A stretch of 17,443 nucleotides of DNA, taken from a virus. Taxonomy: Duplodnaviria; Heunggongvirae; Uroviricota; Caudoviricetes. A program made the translations under genes and the position numbers. Every line of letters begins with the position of its first letter. Within the stretch, counting starts at the first letter, position 1. The stretch lies in IMG/VR virus record IMGVR_UViG_2671181033_000009; one strand, written 5' to 3'. Below are positions 75-17,443 of the stretch, piece after piece. The notes beneath the pieces were generated by a model. The model saw only the letters and a program-made list of their open reading frames with translations. It did not search any database and was not told where the DNA came from.

Positions 75-98
75 TTTAATTACCCTTCATCATAATCA

Positions 99-806
99 TT
101 ATTTGCTCTTCAATCCTAGTTTGACTTTTACATCCCTGATTACTTTTTTAATTTTCTTTTTGAATATAAGATATGTATAGCCAAAGTCTTTCAATTCATT
201 TTTTATATTATAGTGCCGTTCAAGATCAATGCGATCTTTTGCTTTTAAAACAGCGGTTGTTTTTTTACCTGAAAGGTCAATTAGTCTTAAACCTTTTTCG
301 GATACTATAAAATTTCCTTTATGAGGATCGCCAGACACCATTCCATGCTGATGCAACTCTTTTATCGATTCTGATAATTGATCCTTCAGATCTTCAGAAA
401 TTTCCAAATACTCATTTAACCCGACACCTTCAATATACTCAATGAGCATAATATAATAATGAGCGAAATTTAATGTTTTACGTTCAGCTAGCAAAAAATA
501 GTCATTAATTGATTGGATGCCTTCACCACGTACCCGATCGGTTTGATAAATTAAATTTTCATAATAATCTTTTTTTATGCAAGATTTTAAGAAACGTTCG
601 GTCATTTTATGCTTTGGCGCATAAACTTTAAGTACAAGAGGTCCACGAGCAGTGTCAATAAGAATGACTTTAGTATCATCAATAGAACGAAAAACTTTTA
701 ATGTTTTAACCCTGCAAGTTAAAAAGTCATTTAGAACTTGCTCATAAAAGGGATCATTATCTTTTATGAAAACTTTCAACCCATTTATCGTTTTATTATA
801 TATCAT
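99..806 (-). CDS. waaY: LPS core heptose(II) kinase WaaY-like protein
   Basis: 235-aa ORF, ATG at 806..804, K-rich kinase-like protein of WaaY size, placed after a GT8 gene in the waaQ operon. Confidence 0.8.
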   Translation of the reverse strand: MIYNKTINGLKVFIKDNDPFYEQVLNDFLTCRVKTLKVFRSIDDTKVILIDTARGPLVLKVYAPKHKMTERFLKSCIKKDYYENLIYQTDRVRGEGIQSINDYFLLAERKTLNFAHYYIMLIEYIEGVGLNEYLEISEDLKDQLSESIKELHQHGMVSGDPHKGNFIVSEKGLRLIDLSGKKTTAVLKAKDRIDLERHYNIKNELKDFGYTYLIFKKKIKKVIRDVKVKLGLKSK

Positions 807-831
807 AATGAATTATTTTAACCTTAAATCT

Positions 832-1839
832 TTAGAAGCATTTTTCTTTATAATACTTTAAATAATTAAAAATGCCTGCCATATAATGCTTTTGTTTAAA
901 TTTATGTTTTGCACAATACCGATACTGATTGCTATTTACAGGTTTAAGTAAATCTTCTTTACTCCACGGAGAAGCTGCTTTGGCGATCAAAAAACTACGT
1001 GACACCGGATAGTCAGCCCACTCATGCCAGGGTTTTGTAGGTCCCACATAGTGTATAAACACGGTGTCATCATTGACTGGATTATCAACTTTGTCTTTTA
1101 ATTCATAGTTAATACTATATCGGGTATTATATTTCTCCGAAATAAACTTCACTTTACCATCCAATAATACATTCAGTACATCTTGATCAAGGTGGGTGAT
1201 TTTACTTACCCAATCTGGGTCACGCAACATTTCAATAGCTTTTGACGAAATGTTATTTAGATTCCACTCATCAATATTTATCAGTAAAAAACCAGCATTG
1301 AAATATCCAAAAGCTAACTGTGGTGTAGTTAATACCGAGGCTCGATTTTGCCACCATTCAACATCTCTTTCAGCTACAACTGCGGCAATTTCATTAGTAG
1401 AAAATTGATAATCTAAGAGTTCTTTAATACTACCCTTGCAAGCAATATCTGCATCAAGATATAGTATTTTTTCATGTTTATGATAGAAATAATCTGCAAT
1501 TATAAATCGAAAATATGTTGCGTAAGTCCAGTTTTTCGTGCTTGGTAATGACTTCAGCTTATCACAATTGATAATATAAATATTAATTCTTGAATTATAT
1601 TGTTTTGCTAAATCAGAAAAATATAATTTGTCTTTATCACTGATATAATCTGTGAAAACATGAAATTCACAAGAGATTTCTCTATTGTTTAATAGAATAG
1701 ATGCGATGGCTACACCACATCCAAAAAGAAAATTTTTGTCAATACCAAATGCTATATCAAGAGTATTTTTAGATCTTATATTTTGATAATGAAAATTATA
1801 CTCAAAAAGGATGATGTCACTATCATTGAGTTGAGACAT
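832..1839 (-). CDS. waaI: GT8-family LPS outer-core hexosyltransferase (WaaI/WaaO-like)
   Basis: 335-aa ORF with the N-terminal and C-terminal look of the WaaI/WaaJ/WaaO/WaaR/WaaT family (for example LDADIACKGSIKELL). Its position directly between waaP and waaY matches the R3-type layout as I recall it. The choice of waaI over waaO is from synteny only. Confidence 0.8.
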   Translation of the reverse strand: MSQLNDSDIILFEYNFHYQNIRSKNTLDIAFGIDKNFLFGCGVAIASILLNNREISCEFHVFTDYISDKDKLYFSDLAKQYNSRINIYIINCDKLKSLPSTKNWTYATYFRFIIADYFYHKHEKILYLDADIACKGSIKELLDYQFSTNEIAAVVAERDVEWWQNRASVLTTPQLAFGYFNAGFLLINIDEWNLNNISSKAIEMLRDPDWVSKITHLDQDVLNVLLDGKVKFISEKYNTRYSINYELKDKVDNPVNDDTVFIHYVGPTKPWHEWADYPVSRSFLIAKAASPWSKEDLLKPVNSNQYRYCAKHKFKQKHYMAGIFNYLKYYKEKCF

Positions 1840-1881
1840 ATTTATTCTGTATCCAAAATTTTGGCAAAAATAAGTTACGGG

Positions 1882-2679
1882 TTACAACGATTTTCGAATC
1901 GTTCTTTCCCTGATTTTTGTGGCTTTTGCTTCTGCTTGCGACAGCAGTCCTTGTTCCTGCTTGAGAATGTCTTTAAGCGGGGCGGCAAAATACACTTTCA
2001 TAAACCGCCAGATATCCCGCTGAGTCAGGCCGATATTCATCGAAGAAAAATAAAGCCCAATAAGATCTTTATCCCGCCAACGACGTGGAACGCGCGTGCG
2101 AAGCTGCGCCCGGTGCAGGTCAATTACCGAAATTTTTAACTCCTCTTCCTTACCGGAAAAAGGCAAGTGCAGCAGGAAATGACAGATATAACAGTCACGG
2201 TGGTTAATGCCCGCAGCATGCATATCGCGCACCATCGTCGCGACACGCTTAATAAGCATACGCTTTACGCGAACATCTGGAGGGTTAGTCGCCCAGTCAG
2301 CACAGTAATCTTCAAGACTTATGGTTGGTGTCAGATCTTCGGTAATAATAAATGAAGTTCTGGTCAGCGGATTCATGCCTTTTTCGCCAAATGCCACCCC
2401 ATACATAGTATCAACGCCGACATCCCGCAGTCGATGAATCGCATTCCATTCGCGGTCTGCGCCTAATACTGGCATCCGCAATGAGAGTAAATTTTTGATT
2501 ATCTCTTTCAGGGTCGTGCCGCGATGCCATTTGAGAAAATAGCTTTTGCCCGCCATTTCAAATCGCAGAGTGCGGCGAGTTTCCAGTTCACGAAAAACCT
2601 CACCCTGCAAGGTTTTAACTTCCTCAAAAGGATCTTTACCGCGCCATAACGTGGCAAACGGCTCTTTAAGTTCAACCAT
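1882..2679 (-). CDS. waaP: LPS core heptose(I) kinase WaaP
   Basis: ORF 1882..2688. The protein is recognisable as WaaP from [21 protein letters not shown], so I place the start at the ATG 2679..2677 (265 aa) rather than the GTG at 2688. It overlaps the waaG stop by 8 nt. Confidence 0.9.
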
Positions 2680-3796
2680 CCAGACCACCCGTTATGATAT
2701 CCGCCGCTTTCTCTGGCAGACTGTATAAATCTTGTGTATCAGCATAATGTCGCGCATTTTCCGCCCAGGCCTGGCGCAATGAAGATTGCGTTAACGCTTT
2801 GCGTAAAATCTCATTCAATGTTTCCTGGCGGAATGGCTCAGCAATAGCCTCGCCGCAATTGGCGTCGACAATATAATGCGCATAGCCACAAACGGCTGTT
2901 GTTAGTACCGGTAATCCTGCAGTAATCGCTTCCAGTAGCACAATTCCCGCTGCTTCCTGGTAGGCAGGATGCAGTAATAAATCCGCCGCCGCCATTAATT
3001 CCGAGACATCGTTGCGCCCCGAGAAGAAGTGAACATTACTGCGCACGCCGCGTTTTTCTGCCAGCGCCTCAAATTTTCGCGGTTTATCCTGTCCAACAAC
3101 ATATAGCAATGTGTTGTGGCGCAGCGAATCCGGTAACGAAGCAAGTGCTTCAATGGAACGATCGACACCTTTACGCGTGAAGTCTGAACCGACCTGCAAC
3201 AATAAATATTGTTGTTCGGTTATTCCATTCTTCTTACGGAAGATTTCACGGCTATTAGCTGGCTGCTGGCTATATTTACGATCAGGATAAATCCCCGGTG
3301 GCAGAATATGAAAACGCTCCGCTTCAGTCTGATAATGTTTCTGGAAATCGGCGATTTGCTTATCTGTCAGCATCAGCAGCTGTGTCGGCTTGCCCTGTTC
3401 GAAGGTTGCCCGCTCAAAGGCGGCATAATGGCGATAACGTGACGTCAGGTGATAGAAAAAGCCTTTTTCCTGCGCGACTTTCTCGGCATAACAAACATCA
3501 GCGGCATAATAAACGTCCAGCCCCGGCATTTTGTTGAATCCAACGACTTTATCGACGGGATGTTCGCGTAAATGTTTTTGCACCCAGGCAAAATACTCCG
3601 CATTGCGCCCGTGATTGGTATGCGATTTAACCGGCACTTTGATCAGTTCAAATACATCAGGGCATTCGCCTTCCCACGACTGGGTATAAACCCGAACATG
3701 ATGACCTCGGGCGGCGACTGTCTGAGCAATACGCATAAAATCGCGCTGCAAACCGCCAAAGGGAAAATATTTATATAAACAAAAAGCAACGATCAT
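2672..3796 (-). CDS. waaG: LPS glucosyltransferase I WaaG
   Basis: 374-aa ORF beginning [24 protein letters not shown], recognisable as WaaG. Its start overlaps the waaQ stop by 4 nt (ATGA). Confidence 0.95.
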
Positions 3797-13274: not shown

Positions 13275-13400
13275 ATTGAAATCTCCGGCTTGAAACAAAT
13301 GTGGCTGCGCATTATACGGACTTCCGGCGGTTATTCCTATCCTGACAAGGCATCGATGGCTATAATCCTTCCACCTCTCCTTTTATAAACAGGAACGTCT

Positions 13401-14264
13401 ATGATCCGCAGTATGACCGCCTACGCCCGGCGTGAAATCAAGGGTGAATGGGGGAGCGCAACCTGGGAAATGCGCTCGGTAAACCAGCGTTATCTGGAAA
13501 CTTACTTTCGTCTGCCGGAGCAGTTCCGTAGCCTTGAACCTGTCGTTCGCGAGCGTATTCGTTCTCGCCTGACGCGCGGTAAAGTGGAATGTACCCTGCG
13601 CTATGAGCCAGATGTTAGCGCACAAGGTGAGCTAATCCTCAATGAAAAACTGGCTAAACAGCTGGTAACTGCCGCGAACTGGGTAAAAATGCAGAGTGAC
13701 GAAGGGGAAATCAACCCGGTTGATATTCTGCGCTGGCCGGGCGTGATGGCAGCCCAGGAGCAGGATCTCGACGCCATTGCCGCTGAAATTCTCGCGGCGC
13801 TGGATGGTACGCTGGACGACTTTATTGTCGCGCGCGAAACCGAAGGTCAGGCACTGAAAGCATTGATCGAGCAGCGTCTGGAAGGCGTCACCGCCGAAGT
13901 GGTCAAAGTCCGCGCCCATATGCCGGAAATCCTGCAATGGCAGCGTGAGCGTCTGGTCGCGAAGCTGGAAGATGCTCAGGTTCAGTTGGAAAACAACCGT
14001 CTGGAGCAGGAGTTGGTTCTGCTGGCACAACGAATTGACGTTGCCGAAGAACTGGACCGCCTGGAAGCGCATGTCAAAGAGACCTACAACATTCTGAAGA
14101 AAAAAGAAGCCGTTGGTCGTCGTCTGGACTTTATGATGCAGGAATTCAACCGCGAGTCGAACACTCTTGCGTCGAAATCTATCAATGCCGAAGTGACAAA
14201 CTCCGCCATCGAGCTGAAAGTGTTGATTGAGCAGATGCGCGAGCAGATTCAAAATGTGGAGTAA
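13401..14264 (+). CDS. yicC: YicC-family stress-induced protein (UPF0701)
   Basis: 287-aa ORF MIRSMTAYARREIKGEWGSATWEMRSVNQRYLE..., divergent from rph. Confidence 0.93.
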   Translation: MIRSMTAYARREIKGEWGSATWEMRSVNQRYLETYFRLPEQFRSLEPVVRERIRSRLTRGKVECTLRYEPDVSAQGELILNEKLAKQLVTAANWVKMQSDEGEINPVDILRWPGVMAAQEQDLDAIAAEILAALDGTLDDFIVARETEGQALKALIEQRLEGVTAEVVKVRAHMPEILQWQRERLVAKLEDAQVQLENNRLEQELVLLAQRIDVAEELDRLEAHVKETYNILKKKEAVGRRLDFMMQEFNRESNTLASKSINAEVTNSAIELKVLIEQMREQIQNVE

Positions 14265-14302
14265 GCTATCAGAGGAAATCAATAAAGCGCAATAATCCAA
14301 TC

Positions 14303-14328
14303 AAACCCGCGATAATGCGGGTTTTTTT
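14303..14328 (+). terminator. Rho-independent terminator of yicC
   Basis: AAACCCGC-GATAAT-GCGGGTTTTTTT: a GC stem followed by a 7-T tract, 39 nt after the yicC stop. Confidence 0.75.
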
Positions 14329-14373
14329 GTAATTAATGGCTATCACAACGACGCAAGAAAGCGCATGATTAGC

Positions 14374-14425
14374 GTGTACCCAAAGGTGTACCCAATTGCA
14401 TTTTGGAACATCTGTTTGGGTACAC
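14374..14425. repeat. Three copies of GTGTACCC (two direct, one inverted) upstream of the integrase gene; candidate integrase arm-type or operator sites
   Basis: GTGTACCC at 14374..14381 and 14386..14393, and its reverse complement GGGTACAC at 14418..14425, within 80 bp upstream of the integrase ATG. Confidence 0.4.
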
Positions 14426-14454
14426 CCCCCTATTCAATGTTCAGGAGTTTCTTA

Positions 14455-15717
14455 ATGCCAAAGCTCACAGATATTCAGATCAGGGCATGGATAAAATCAG
14501 GTGAACGATTCGAAGGACGGTCAGATGGCGATGGCTTATACCTTCGTTACCGGAAAGAAGACCAGATACCAACATGGCGATTCCGCTACAAATTCGCAGG
14601 AAAAGCACGGGCAATGGTCATTGGCTCCTATGCTGATTACTCGCTATCAAAAGCCAGAGAAACAGCAAAGGAACTATCCGCTCGCGTCGCACTTGGGTAC
14701 GACGTAGCAGCAGAGAAACAGGAGCGTAAGGCCGAAGCCCTGGCAAAAATTGAGGCAGAAAAAAAGGCCGTGCGCGTATCAGAGCTTGCTGCCGAATATT
14801 TCGAACGTCAGATACTGCCACGATGGAAACATCCCGACATCCTGCGCCGTCGCATCGACAAAGACATAAACCCGCGTATTGGTCATATGAAGGTTGAGGA
14901 CGTAAAACCACGACACATTGACGAGATGCTAAAGGCAATTGTTGACCGTGGAGCGCCAACCATTGCAACGGACGTTCTGCGATGGACGCGCCGCATATTC
15001 GACTACGGGATAAAACGTCATGTGCTGGAGATTAACCCGTGCTCGGCGTTTGAAGTCTCTGATGCTGGTGGCAAGGAGTCATCCCGCGATCGCTGGCTGA
15101 CCCGTGAAGAGTTAATCCGGTTCTTTCAGGCCATGCGTACCGCAAAGGGATTCAGCCGACAGAACGAGCTAACCTTCAAGTTGCTACTGGCGCTTTGCGT
15201 CAGGAAGATGGAGTTGTGCGCCGCCAGATGGGAAGAGTTCGACCTTGATAACGCCGTGTGGCATTTGCCAGAGGAACGCAGCAAAAACGGCGACCCCATA
15301 GATATTCCACTTGTTCCCCCCGTTATTGAATGGCTGAAAGAACTGCGCGTCTTGTCATGCAATAGCGCGTGGGTACTTCCGGCGCGGAAAATGCAGCACA
15401 GGATGATCCCCCACATTCAGGAGAGCACCCTACCCGTTGCACTGCAAAAAGTTCGCGCAGAGATGTCGGAGGTTCCAGATTTCACTATTCACGACTTCCG
15501 CCGTACAGCACGCACACATTTAGCCGCGCTTGGTGTTGATCCGGTAGTCGCTGAAAGATGCCTCAATCACCGCATCAAGGGAGTCGAGGGCATATACAAT
15601 CGCTATCAGTATTTCGATGAACGGACTTCGGCGCTGGCGAAATGGACCAATCTGTTAGTGTCGCTGGAACGCGGGGAACGCTACAACGTGACACCAATCA
15701 GAAGGGCCAAAGCATGA
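14455..15717 (+). CDS. int: Tyrosine-type site-specific integrase (P4/CP4-57-like, with N-terminal arm-binding domain)
   Basis: ATG 14455 with AGGAG 7 nt upstream gives 420 aa. N-terminus MPKLTDIQIRAW...GDGLYLRYRKEDQIPTWRFRYKFAGK is typical of the arm-binding domain; C-terminal HDFRRT (HxxR) and YNRYQY supply the catalytic residues. The ORF-track start at 14365 is an unlikely extension. Confidence 0.9.
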   Translation: MPKLTDIQIRAWIKSGERFEGRSDGDGLYLRYRKEDQIPTWRFRYKFAGKARAMVIGSYADYSLSKARETAKELSARVALGYDVAAEKQERKAEALAKIEAEKKAVRVSELAAEYFERQILPRWKHPDILRRRIDKDINPRIGHMKVEDVKPRHIDEMLKAIVDRGAPTIATDVLRWTRRIFDYGIKRHVLEINPCSAFEVSDAGGKESSRDRWLTREELIRFFQAMRTAKGFSRQNELTFKLLLALCVRKMELCAARWEEFDLDNAVWHLPEERSKNGDPIDIPLVPPVIEWLKELRVLSCNSAWVLPARKMQHRMIPHIQESTLPVALQKVRAEMSEVPDFTIHDFRRTARTHLAALGVDPVVAERCLNHRIKGVEGIYNRYQYFDERTSALAKWTNLLVSLERGERYNVTPIRRAKA

Positions 15718-16364
15718 TTAATATCCTGAAAAAATCGCCAATAGAACGCCTGTGCGCTTCTGTTTCAATCACTCCGCACGAAATGGCCCTTGCACTGGCT
15801 GGCCTTAATCCGTCAATGAGAATAGGCGACGTGCCGCAGGACAAGTTCGAACAGGTCGAATCAGCCAGAACGATGATAGCCCGTGCTATCTGGTTGCATA
15901 GCGGCAGGAAAGCGGGAAAGGATGAGCCATACAGAGCGGGGGATATATTCCTTGCGTCCTTCCCGTTCATTGAGGCAGGAACGCCAGAGGCAATAATTAC
16001 GGCGGTAACTGATGCCATTGATGATTTACGAGGAACAAAAAATTGGGAAGAAAAAGCACTTAATCTTGGTGGGCGGCGGCTGGTCAGCCACATCAAAGAA
16101 ACAAGCCGCAGCGGAAGGGGGCAGTACAGGAAACTCGACGAAGAACAGGGAAACATGAAGATGATGGGGTTGCTGGTTTTACTGCTCGTGAAGAAATCAG
16201 GCACAACCGCATACATTCAGGACGGAGAACCAAACCGTTCAGCCATTTACCGCGACGTGGAAGCGCTGATGAAGGAGAAAGGGATATCGCCAAAAGGGAT
16301 CGCCAAATCCACGTTTATGCAAAAAATATCAGCCGCATTACTGGCAGTAAGCCAGGCAGATTAA
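15714..16364 (+). CDS. Hypothetical protein of unknown function (island cargo, 216 aa)
   Basis: ATG 15714 overlaps the integrase stop (ATGA) with GAAGGG 8 nt upstream. Composition is protein-like, whereas the antisense ORF is S/P/C-rich. I recognise no motif or family. Confidence 0.6.
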   Translation: MINILKKSPIERLCASVSITPHEMALALAGLNPSMRIGDVPQDKFEQVESARTMIARAIWLHSGRKAGKDEPYRAGDIFLASFPFIEAGTPEAIITAVTDAIDDLRGTKNWEEKALNLGGRRLVSHIKETSRSGRGQYRKLDEEQGNMKMMGLLVLLLVKKSGTTAYIQDGEPNRSAIYRDVEALMKEKGISPKGIAKSTFMQKISAALLAVSQAD

Positions 16365-16750
16365 CCAGCCAACACGCCCTGTATTCACGGGGCTGTAATC
16401 CCCATACATCCCCCACCAGCAAAATTTACTCACCGTTCTTAATCGTTATAAATCGGTATAAACAGGATTAGCACGTTAAAGACTGGCAAAAGATGGCAAA
16501 ACATAACAACGCATAACGGCGCAGTAGGAGTATTACGGTATCAGAACGTATACGGCTTCAATGACTTATCACCAATAAAGCAAAAACTTTCAAAGTTTTA
16601 GCACTCCATCCCGCCTGTTCAATCTTTTACTGGAAGTGTGTTTTTTCAATAGATTTTCGGAACGTTTTAATAGATTCCAGATTTGGTGGAATGCTGTACA
16701 AACAACCAATAGAATGGAGAAAACATCAACTTTTAACCCATGAGGGAATC

Positions 16751-16966
16751 ATGACAGCTAACCATCAAGAAGCTATCCCTACCACGGGCTATATCCGCCG
16801 CTGCAACCTGGCTAAGTTGCTTGATACCAGCGTGTCAACTATCGACCGCTGGGTGCGTATCGGCAAATTACCGAAGCCCACGAAGCTGGGGGAGAAAAAC
16901 ACCGTATTTAATGCGGTGGAGATCAACCACTGGCTGAACGAGCGCCGCAACAACACCAAGCAGTAA
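16751..16966 (+). CDS. alpA: AlpA-family phage/island transcriptional regulator (excisionase-like HTH)
   Basis: ATG 16751 with GAGGGA 5 nt upstream gives 72 aa. The architecture (LAKLLDTSVSTIDRWV ... VFNAVEINHWLNERR) resembles AlpA/TorI-type small DNA-binding proteins. Confidence 0.8.
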   Translation: MTANHQEAIPTTGYIRRCNLAKLLDTSVSTIDRWVRIGKLPKPTKLGEKNTVFNAVEINHWLNERRNNTKQ

Positions 16967-17033
16967 TCAGCATGACGGGCGTACAGTTCCGCGCCCGTCA
17001 GCACCAAACCTGATTCTACAGCAGGAGTTTTTA

Positions 17034-17411
17034 ATGAAACGTCCGAATATGCCCGTACAGGGGCAGGGCTTCGTTCAGCCTGAAATCAGCCAGAACGATA
17101 TATTGATTCGCCACAAAGCGGAGTCGCGTATTGATTCCCGCGTTATTTCTGAGCGAGCAGGAATACAACACGAAAGTATCATTGCGACGATTAAATCTCA
17201 TCAATCCAGATTGCGCGAGCTTGGCTCACTGCCTCGCCAGTCAGTCAAGGAATTAACCTATTTGAAATCGGGAAAACCTGGCCGCAAGCGCGGTCGTCCT
17301 GAAATTAGTTATTTGCTGAATGAGCTACAGCTTGACTATCTGTTACGCGTTATCCGTGGGCGTGACGCAGAACGTATCAACCTGAACCGCCCCGGAAATC
17401 CTGGAGACTAA
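17034..17411 (+). CDS. Hypothetical island protein, possibly phage regulatory Rha-like
   Basis: 125-aa ORF with AGGAG 8 nt upstream of the ATG. The segment DSRVISERAGIQHESIIATIKSH resembles the N-terminal motif of Rha-like phage regulators, but the assignment is weak. Confidence 0.55.
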   Translation: MKRPNMPVQGQGFVQPEISQNDILIRHKAESRIDSRVISERAGIQHESIIATIKSHQSRLRELGSLPRQSVKELTYLKSGKPGRKRGRPEISYLLNELQLDYLLRVIRGRDAERINLNRPGNPGD

Positions 17412-17443
17412 ACTCCCTGAGAAAGAGGTAAACAGGATGACTA

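Follow-up and report, generated by a model that had tools for sequence, protein, structure and literature searches.

Genes and features at the yicC junction

The window analysed here, a stretch of 17,443 nt, comes from E. coli and matches strain 2013C-4974, with 100% identity over positions 13400-17443 and 99.99% identity over all 17443 nt. All features described below are on its + strand, apart from one short repeat. The yicC gene (13401-14264) codes for a YicC/YloC endoribonuclease of 287 aa, as indicated by the Pfam YicC-like_N and YicC-like_C domains, the PGAP annotation and the alignment with K-12. Its 3' end reads ...CAAAATGTGGAGTAA, and it is followed at 14303-14331 by a rho-independent terminator composed of AAACCCGCG-ATAA-UGCGGGUUU and then a T run (terminator scan; fold of -15.9 kcal/mol).

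The next gene (14455-15717) codes for a tyrosine integrase of 420 residues assigned to PHROG 1 (integrase). It has the P4-type architecture, with the Pfam domains Arm-DNA-bind_3 (PF13356, E=2e-19), Phage_int_M (PF22022, E=4e-17) and Phage_integrase (PF00589, E=2e-16), and its start at 14455 is backed by the PGAP annotation and by relatives that align from residue 1. Three copies of GTGTACCCAA, at 14374-14383 (+), 14386-14395 (+) and 14416-14425 (-), were found by motif count between the terminator and the integrase gene and represent putative arm-type integrase sites. Only 0.07 matches are expected by chance, and none of 200 shuffled sequences reached three. The first-pass annotation had described a P4-type integrase directly after yicC, led by integrase-proximal repeats; both the three-domain architecture and the repeats are borne out.

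The following ORF (15714-16364) begins within the end of int, the two genes sharing the 4 nt ATGA. Its predicted product is an all-helical protein of 216 aa that has no match in Pfam, NCBIfam or PADLOC and belongs to PHROG 30524, a family devoid of an assigned function. We found only 19 homologues, all unnamed or hypothetical, and comparison of its AlphaFold model (pLDDT 82.7) with PDB and viral folds gave nothing better than E=0.6. A repressor function was considered for this protein, for which there was no helix-turn-helix (HTH) motif or other support.

A presumed regulatory region of 386 nt (16365-16750) comes next, non-coding in that no gene is annotated there in any relative. It contains, upstream of alpA, a near-perfect palindrome read from the sequence, GCAAAAACTTT-C-AAAGTTTTAGC (16580-16602), which Rfam calls spuriously as a miRNA hairpin. 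The alpA-type gene (16751-16966) codes for an HTH protein of 71 aa (Pfam Phage_AlpA and HTH_17; PHROG 66, excisionase/transcriptional regulator), which, by analogy with characterized elements, presumably activates the island and promotes its excision. A promoter scan is uninformative here: it gave fewer sites overall than in shuffled sequences, and none of sigma-70-like type ahead of int or alpA. The last gene (17034-17382) is the 5' part of a Rha-family regulator gene (Pfam Phage_pRha), cut by an insertion sequence (IS) into which its ORF runs up to position 17411; an intact Rha gene of 239 aa is present in RM10042. The left end of this IS3-family element, TGAACCGCCCCGG..., occupies 17383-17443 and is annotated by PGAP as an IS3 family transposase with a programmed frameshift. 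It may be IS629-like.

The island boundary lies within yicC

Aligning the junction with an island-free genome, as the first-pass annotation had advised, located the att core inside yicC. Homology with K-12 stops at an 11-nt identity block, GAGCAGATTCA (14241-14251). Extended by one nucleotide, GAGCAGATTCA(A) at 14241-14252 covers the last yicC codons E-Q-I-Q and forms the attL identity block, or crossover region; it is the sole stretch common to attL, attR and the K-12 attB. This block is the published att core of the E. coli element EcCIRM13514, whose published start, 4527455, falls exactly on window position 14241. A generic search for direct repeats across the island did not report the 11-nt core, which was revealed by the alignment with the empty K-12 site.

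The yicC gene of the window is thus chimeric. Its chromosomal part extends to ~14251, and its last codons are island-derived, ending in QNVE* versus QNIE* in K-12; the last 13 nt are AAATGTGGAGTAA in the window versus GAACATCGAATAA in K-12. From 14252 on K-12 homology is absent, and the island supplies the end of the gene (AAT GTG GAG TAA) together with a new 3' UTR (14252-14302). The terminator at 14303-14331 is missing from the K-12 site, where a different one stands, and each of the related loci listed has its own, equivalent terminator beyond the stop codon of yicC. In island-bearing genomes the native yicC terminator is found past attR, and in intact relatives the right flank of the K-12 site picks up again after the island.

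These observations modify the initial description of the junction. All the DNA up to the yicC terminator had been regarded as core genome, yet the alignment with the empty K-12 site stops at ~14251, so that the island begins with the final 13 nt of yicC and includes the 3' UTR as well as the terminator. The start of the island, placed at 14265, is actually some 14-24 nt earlier. As for the target, proposed to be the yicC 3' region or its terminator, the former holds in the form of the coding 3' end of yicC, whereas the latter does not, the terminator being supplied by the island. In annotations, the island boundary should therefore be set within yicC at 14241-14252, and the terminator after yicC should be labelled as island-borne. 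The exchange of the 3' UTR and terminator of yicC could possibly alter the expression of the YicC ribonuclease.

Two other details of the att sites have no coverage in the literature cited here. Downstream of the yicC stop codon, the trinucleotide TCA is found at +5 (14269) and +15 (14279), followed by GCA at +25, and these 10-nt-phased TCA repeats are kept in 41, 44 and 33 of 64 unique related loci, spread over dozens of genera that have this integrase clade. In addition, attR differs among lineages by small deletions adjoining the core. In independent E. coli lineages, 2, 11 or 14 nt are repeatedly missing exactly at the crossover side, and because these deletions vary between lineages the crossover points can be placed only approximately. 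The intact island of O157:H7 M1300706002 has a full-length attR, and that of RM10042 a short one. Speculatively, and with a rather low probability, the repeats and deletions could mark an undescribed binding array for an accessory protein and an error-prone step in yicC-specific recombination. Such an array and step might explain the shifted att cores among yicC PICIs, termed attB drift by the authors who described them (10.1101/2022.07.18.500453).

A conserved clade of yicC-specific integrases

Relatives of the integrase, with 55-87% identity, are encoded just downstream of a complete, co-oriented yicC gene in 68 of the 74 loci with enough flanking sequence. The spacing between the two genes is generally about 175-250 nt and reaches about 560 nt. 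In the window as in those 68 loci, int directly follows an intact, co-oriented yicC whose 3' end is regenerated, the arrangement by which we define the Int(yicC) clade. The 74 loci belong to many genera of both Gamma- and Betaproteobacteria, and the last codons of yicC are almost invariant among them. Thus, targeting of the yicC 3' end is a conserved and documented property of the clade, and the near-invariance of the last codons makes them a broad-host-range target. In the 44-kb loci inspected for arm-type sites, the motif GTGTACNCMA is present in two to three copies near int in four out of five loci and in one to two copies near attR, with one stray copy per locus besides the island ends. 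No integrase of deposited phages is more than 33% identical to that of the window.

Among 5426 complete E. coli genomes, 4192 have the empty, K-12-type junction in one contiguous piece, a lower bound since genomes that lack dinD (e.g. THO-003) split the query without carrying the island. The int-orf-alpA left end was found in 90 complete E. coli genomes. The arrangement is thus far from being a fixed feature of the species with no empty sites, the situation that had been named as incompatible with a mobile island, and the core reading of an integrase-led mobile island at the yicC 3' region is supported.

The island of 2013C-4974 is interrupted and partly inverted

The breakpoint in rha is marked by a 3-nt target duplication, ACC, at 17380-17382. 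Window positions 17382-17443 recur in inverted orientation at a second IS copy, located in dinD. The target duplications are swapped between the two copies (ACC in rha, GTC in dinD), and together with the breaks in colinearity they denote an IS insertion and an inversion. Recombination between the rha IS and its inverted dinD copy flipped the remaining ~12.7 kb of the island together with attR. The island had been said to continue beyond the window: its remainder is indeed present in the genome, but it does not simply run onward, the IS3-family element being in its place from 17383.

In this genome the island is split into two pieces that add up to about 15.8 kb when the IS copies are left aside. 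Its right part is a mosaic that includes a DUF927 primase-type gene, a YeeE/YedE transporter gene and extra PerC genes. As a result, attL and attR face each other as inverted repeats at a distance of 5.4 kb, and ~14 nt beside the core are missing from attR. In this configuration, Int could at best invert the segment between the two sites, with no excision. The excision PCR suggested in the first-pass annotation is expected to be negative in 2013C-4974, despite the mobility of this family of elements.

The island is most likely a PICI

Taken together, the data suggest, with a probability that we estimate at about 85%, that the window contains the left end of an E. coli phage satellite (PICI) of the EcCIRM13514 type, integrated in the last codons of yicC. 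EcCIRM13514 is listed as a reference Gram-negative PICI of 11.9 kb at CP006027 4527455-4539396, with the att core GAGCAGATTCAA and the site yicC-dinD (Fillol-Salom 2018 Table S1, PMC6092414). The left 4 kb of the island are 96.9% identical to RM13514, and 397 of the 420 residues of Int are identical to those of the integrase of a sister strain. In intact relatives, unidirectional genes code for Int, AlpA, Rha or AntA, GIY-YIG, Icd/Ash, primase, SSB, ProQ/FinO, PerC and Q proteins. The island thus has the int, alpA and primase genes in the rightward, unidirectional order that characterizes Gram-negative PICIs under the criteria of Fillol-Salom et al. 2018; the primase of relatives, encoded downstream, belongs to PHROG 864 (E=1e-185), and its counterpart in the genome of the window is the DUF927 primase-type gene within the inverted part. 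Measured between cores, the island spans 11.9 kb in both RM12581 and RM13514 and some 15.1 kb in RM10042, in line with the size of about 8-20 kb between direct att repeats given for PICIs. Also as in PICIs, no phage structural or lysis genes are annotated: the PGAP annotations of six island copies, with ten proteins checked using HMMs, contain no capsid, tail or lysis gene.

PICIs with yicC-targeting integrases have been described (10.1101/2022.07.18.500453), and both the type of element and its site are already catalogued. The finding is thus an ordinary one; integration at the yicC 3' end, a hot spot, is well documented, and the importance of the present case beyond correct annotation is small. 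The PICI label is a probable one, drawn from the gene content and the Table S1 listing; neither a packaging gene of the RppA type nor a cos site or a helper phage was identified. For EcCIRM13514-type elements, no induction, excision or packaging is reported in the PICI literature cited here.

Other readings concern the target and the nature of the island. P4-type integrases commonly target the 3' ends of tRNA or tmRNA genes, and the yicC link would be incidental if the junction harboured an unrecognized tRNA or sRNA gene. A weak structured-RNA match over 14218-14330 in Rfam goes in this direction. It nevertheless reaches just 25 bits where the gathering score is 41, and it only reflects the terminator hairpin, itself island DNA; likewise, at E<=1 Rfam gave nothing near a gathering score at the junction, where weak Trp_leader and Leu_leader matches correspond to the same hairpin. 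ARAGORN found no tRNA or tmRNA gene in the whole window, and neither such a gene nor a 3' fragment of one, as expected of islands that target them, lies at the junction. Furthermore, the identity block is part of the coding sequence of yicC, and int adjoins this gene in 68 of 74 loci from distant genera. The tRNA/sRNA-target reading is effectively refuted, and the initial statement that there is no tRNA at the yicC junction stands, with covariance models detecting no RNA gene there.

The P4-type architecture of the integrase and the presence of phage-related genes coding for Icd-like, Ash-family, Q antiterminator and Rha/AntA proteins could suit a decayed prophage or a remnant of a P4-type satellite rather than a PICI. 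However, the islands are 11.9-15 kb long with unidirectional transcription, no annotation contains capsid, tail or lysis genes or, alongside the primase, the P4 products Psu, Sid, Delta and Epsilon, and the best integrase among deposited phages is 33% identical, making this origin highly improbable. The P4-like and prophage readings were rejected on annotated gene content alone. An integrative mobilizable element of the MGI/SGI1 type, moved by conjugative plasmids or integrative and conjugative elements (ICEs), also appears quite unlikely. The yicC-dinD site is listed for a PICI (PMC6092414), but Vibrio MGIs and SGI1-like elements are also placed at the yicC 3' end (PMC8409611) and share it with PICIs. 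yicC-specific integrases are described for MGIVflInd1, MGIVmi1 and SGI1-like elements, including E. coli IEEcoMOD1 (PMC8409611), and the clade spans many genera with varied cargo. As some of its members drive conjugatively mobilized islands (PMC8409611), the integrase alone is no proof of a satellite lifestyle. Nevertheless, in intact relatives of the island no relaxase, oriT-related, TraG/TraN, MpsA or SgaC gene is annotated, and what they hold is the PICI set of alpA, Rha/AntA, Icd/Ash, primase, PerC and Q genes, and the element is listed as a PICI at identical coordinates (PMC6092414).

Proposed mechanism of integration

The junctions, repeats, domains, distribution and rearrangement were observed directly, and they suggest the following route for the PICI. 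As for recombination chemistry, Int, as a tyrosine recombinase that binds arm sites through its N-terminal domain, would join attP to the last eight codons of the chromosomal yicC gene. The attP site is predicted to contain 24 nt that imitate the end of yicC, GAGCAGATTCAAAATGTGGAGTAA, with strand exchange taking place inside the shared GAGCAGATTCA, and by analogy the GTGTACCCAA repeats would serve as arm-type Int sites. Upon integration, the original terminator and final codons of yicC end up at attR, and island copies take their place; yicC itself stays intact, with the I286V substitution only, and has a new terminator.

The role of AlpA and the dependence on a phage are modelled on EcCICFT073. 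A helper phage would turn on AlpA, which in turn may drive excision and expression of the rightward operon, leading to replication by the island primase and to packaging in helper particles. Excision from an intact island would join ...CTCAATGAGCAGATTCA to AAATGTGGAGTAAGCTATC.

Comparison with known elements

The closest known element is EcCIRM13514 of the O145:H28 strain RM13514. It shares the yicC-dinD site, the att core GAGCAGATTCAA and corresponding coordinates with the island of the window, as well as the int-orf216-alpA module at 96.9% nucleotide identity, with Int at about 95% amino acid identity. They differ in size (11.9 kb versus about 15.8 kb) and in their primases, of RM13514 type in the former, whereas the latter has the DUF927 gene. 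Moreover, the copy in 2013C-4974 is interrupted by the IS3-family element, inverted, has a shortened attR and harbours the YeeE/YedE transporter and extra PerC genes. CfCIP10159, a Citrobacter freundii PICI located between yicC and yicG, and the other yicC PICIs discussed by the Williams laboratory are alike in the targeted gene end and the class of element. In contrast, the att core of CfCIP10159, ATCGAGTAAG, covers the stop codon and has no position in common with the GAGCAGATTCA block (PMC6092414).

EcCICFT073, the experimentally studied model PICI, similarly has int, alpA, primase and perC genes in a rightward arrangement, and it is the source of the model of AlpA-controlled induction by helper phages; the yicC-type element is known here from its sequence. 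EcCICFT073 has a different integrase, a different site, ycfD-phoQ, and the core GGACATATTT (PMC6092414). MGIVflInd1, MGIVmi1, IEEcoMOD1 and SGI1-like elements, likened by their target, also have a tyrosine integrase specific for the yicC 3' end in Gammaproteobacteria (PMC8409611). All these elements nevertheless differ by conjugative mobilization, oriT or Tra-related genes and RdfM-type excisionases, and they have no alpA-primase-PerC set.

Lastly, integrases of the P4 and CP4-57 family are composed of the same three domains, arm-binding, central and catalytic. As here, the attP of those elements carries a replacement copy of the 3' end of the target gene. They insert at the 3' ends of tRNA genes or ssrA, whereas the target in the window is the 3' end of a protein-coding gene.

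Boundaries of the island

The window is 100% identical to E. coli 2013C-4974 (NZ_CP027587.1) over 13400-17443 and 99.99% identical over its whole length. The ordinary core order coaBC-dut-slmA-pyrE-rph-yicC precedes the island, with yicC at 13401-14264; in K-12, dinD and then yicG lie directly downstream of yicC. We aligned this empty K-12 locus against the intact island copy of strain RM10042 and obtained two homology blocks, the first ending inside yicC at ...GAGCAGATTCA and the second restarting 15 kb on, just before dinD. The left island end (attL) reads GCGCGAGCAGATTCA|AAATGTGGAGTAAGCTATC, the K-12 attB site GCGCGAGCAGATTCA|GAACATCGAATAACTCGTAAC, and the fullest right end (attR), from O157:H7 M1300706002, CTCAATGAGCAGATTCA|GAACATTGAATAACTCGTAAC. 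An identity block common to all three, GAGCAGATTCA, is found at 14241-14251.

The last four codons of yicC and its stop codon are the island copy, the protein ending in QNVE* versus QNIE* in K-12. The 3' UTR and the rho-independent terminator (14303-14331) are also new and come from the island, and the native terminator (GCCGCC...GGCGGCATTTTT) is displaced to the right of attR. Therefore, the first-pass annotation was wrong to count everything up to the yicC terminator as core genome, and the island start that it placed at 14265 moves about 14-24 nt leftwards, to about 14241-14252. The island itself is real, and the earlier interpretation of it was essentially right. In particular, ARAGORN detected no tRNA or tmRNA gene in the whole window, and an Rfam scan of 13900-17443 with permissive settings gave only sub-threshold matches, the best being Trp_leader (25 bits for a gathering score of 41), which is only a terminator hairpin. 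Thus, the island was correctly described as integrase-led and lacking a tRNA.

The sequence of attR just past the identity block varies by lineage (loci L001, L002, L004, L005, L006, L088 and L089). Only the O157:H7 lineage has the full length. Relative to it, 2 nt are missing in RM12581 and 90-3040, 11 nt in RM10042, OkiPb01713 and SCU-106, and 14 nt in 2013C-4974, where attR reads GAGCAGATTCATCGTAAC. The shortening may reflect either decay of the yicC stub displaced to attR or recombination that was imprecise.

The integrase module and its target

Three copies of GTGTACCCAA at 14374-14425 (0.07 expected by chance; three reached in 0/200 shuffles) precede a 420-residue integrase (14455-15717), whose domains are Arm-DNA-bind_3, Phage_int_M and Phage_integrase. 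The motif GTGTACNCMA is located at the island ends in the 44-kb E. coli loci, with one stray copy per locus: four of the five have two or three copies close to int, and attR has one or two nearby. This placement is as expected for arm-type Int sites. The N-terminal domain of Int would bind the GTGTACCCAA repeats, and strand exchange would take place within GAGCAGATTCA.

The start of a 216-codon ORF (15714-16364) overlaps the integrase stop codon. Its product is predicted to be all-helical. No protein family, defence system or fold was matched, and neither sequence nor fold comparison gave a relative with a known function. Only 19 homologues are detectable, and the ORF adjoins related integrases in Xenorhabdus, Rouxiella and Klebsiella as well (29-63% identity). 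A non-coding stretch of 386 nt separates it from an AlpA-type gene (16751-16966), which is followed by the 5' part of a Rha-family gene. This stretch contains a near-perfect palindrome at 16580-16602, GCAAAAACTTT-C-AAAGTTTTAGC, a candidate operator upstream of alpA.

With one genome per species scanned, 80 loci were found to encode relatives of the integrase at 55-87% identity. Among the 74 with at least 1.3 kb of upstream flank, 68 have a complete, co-oriented yicC upstream, and the distance from its end to the integrase start is about 175-250 nt (up to about 560). They include Enterobacterales (Tatumella, Erwinia, Pectobacterium, Xenorhabdus, Photorhabdus, Klebsiella, Enterobacter and Citrobacter), Betaproteobacteria (Dechloromonas, Vogesella and Aromatoleum), and Aeromonas, Tolumonas and Methylomonas. 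As in the window, the yicC stop codon in the loci whose junctions were listed is followed by an unrelated spacer and by a terminator hairpin particular to each locus. As the last yicC codons (IEQMREQIQNIE*) are nearly invariant in nucleotides across these taxa, the site is a good broad-host-range target.

Between the att core and the terminator lies an array of TCA triplets phased at 10 nt. Counted at the same position in the cross-species loci (L008-L087), of which 64 are unique loci with this integrase clade, TCA is found at +5 after the yicC stop codon in 41/64, at +15 in 44/64 and at +25 in 33/64. The window version (14265-14302) has TCA at 14269 and 14279, and GCA at 14289. The array looks like a protein-binding site.

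An Erwinia psidii contig (NZ_RHHM01000013.1; L009 and L037) carries two clade integrases about 12.7 kb apart, the first adjoining yicC and the second not, which suggests two tandem islands at the yicC site. In Klebsiella michiganensis (L055), an int (65%), orf216 (63%) and alpA (62%) module has no yicC within 4 kb upstream, and may be a related module with a different site.

Distribution and gene content

Of 5426 complete E. coli genomes, 4192 have a contiguous yicC-dinD junction of the K-12 type. This count is a minimum for empty sites: certain genomes, THO-003 among them, pass directly from the yicC stop codon to yicG, without dinD, and go uncounted. The int-orf216-alpA left end lies beside yicC in 90 genomes. 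Presence of the island is thus polymorphic, and the two findings that the first-pass annotation named as evidence against its reading, namely the same int-cargo-alpA arrangement in all related genomes without empty-site alleles and a tRNA or sRNA gene at the junction, were not made. In THO-003 (L007, 20113-20365), which has no dinD, K-12 homology breaks exactly at the yicC stop codon; dinD may itself have been inserted long ago at this hot spot.

We compared the intact copies of RM10042, RM12581, O157:H7 M1300706002, 90-3040 and SCU-106. All five are 12-16 kb long and transcribed rightwards. They carry int, the 216-codon ORF, alpA, a Rha or AntA/AntB gene, Icd-like and Ash-family genes, a gene for a primase (PHROG 864, E=1e-185) or a DUF927 protein, and genes for SSB, ProQ/FinO, one to three PerC-family proteins and a Q antiterminator, with a GIY-YIG gene only in some. 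The int-orf216-alpA module is kept at 95-100% identity, and a mosaic region starts inside the rha/antA gene. No capsid, tail or lysis gene was found among the annotated genes of the island copies, and among deposited phage genomes no integrase exceeds 33% identity.

A partly inverted copy in 2013C-4974

In the window's own genome, rha is truncated by an IS3-family element that starts at 17383 behind the target triplet ACC, and a second, inverted copy lies inside dinD (locus L002, 23984-25297, of which 17383-17443 is the window part, and 38906-40219). The segment of about 13.6 kb between them, which contains the remainder of the island, attR and the 5' portion of dinD, is inverted relative to RM10042. 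Each IS copy now has ACC, half of the duplication in rha, at one end and GTC, half of that in dinD, at the other. These swapped 3-nt duplications are the signature of recombination between two inverted IS copies. As a result, attL (L002 20842-20852, plus strand) and attR (26222-26232, minus strand) now lie 5.4 kb from each other in inverted orientation. Given this orientation and the shortened attR, circular excision is not expected in 2013C-4974. The close relative OkiPb01713 (L088, 20975-20990) has the inversion and lacks the rha-side IS copy; its junction, GTATCAACC|CACGTC, fits an IS deletion between two ACC triplets, consistent with IS excision after inversion.

Relation to known satellites

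Neither the element nor its insertion site is new to the literature. The phage satellite (PICI) EcCIRM13514 of E. coli O145:H28 RM13514 (CP006027 4527455-4539396, 11.9 kb) is catalogued with the att core GAGCAGATTCAA and the att gene yicC-dinD (Fillol-Salom et al. 2018, Table S1, PMC6092414). RM13514 and the window are 96.9% identical from yicC through most of the rha fragment. Position 14241 of the window corresponds to 4527455, the published start, and the attR core of the sister strain RM12581 (L004) to 4539396; thus, the published boundaries are exactly the two identity-block copies found here. The same catalogue lists CfCIP10159 of Citrobacter, with the site yicC-yicG and the core ATCGAGTAAG (PMC6092414, Table S1). 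Among reference PICIs in yicC, the identity blocks have drifted until no overlap remains (Williams laboratory, 10.1101/2022.07.18.500453), and integrative elements of the MGIVflInd1 and SGI1-like types are also known to insert at the yicC 3' end (PMC8409611).

Judged from its predicted genes, the island fits the organisation published for Gram-negative PICIs, and the element would be packaged by a helper phage. By analogy with the experimentally studied EcCICFT073, in which AlpA was shown to be a phage-responsive activator and excision factor, AlpA probably plays both roles here.
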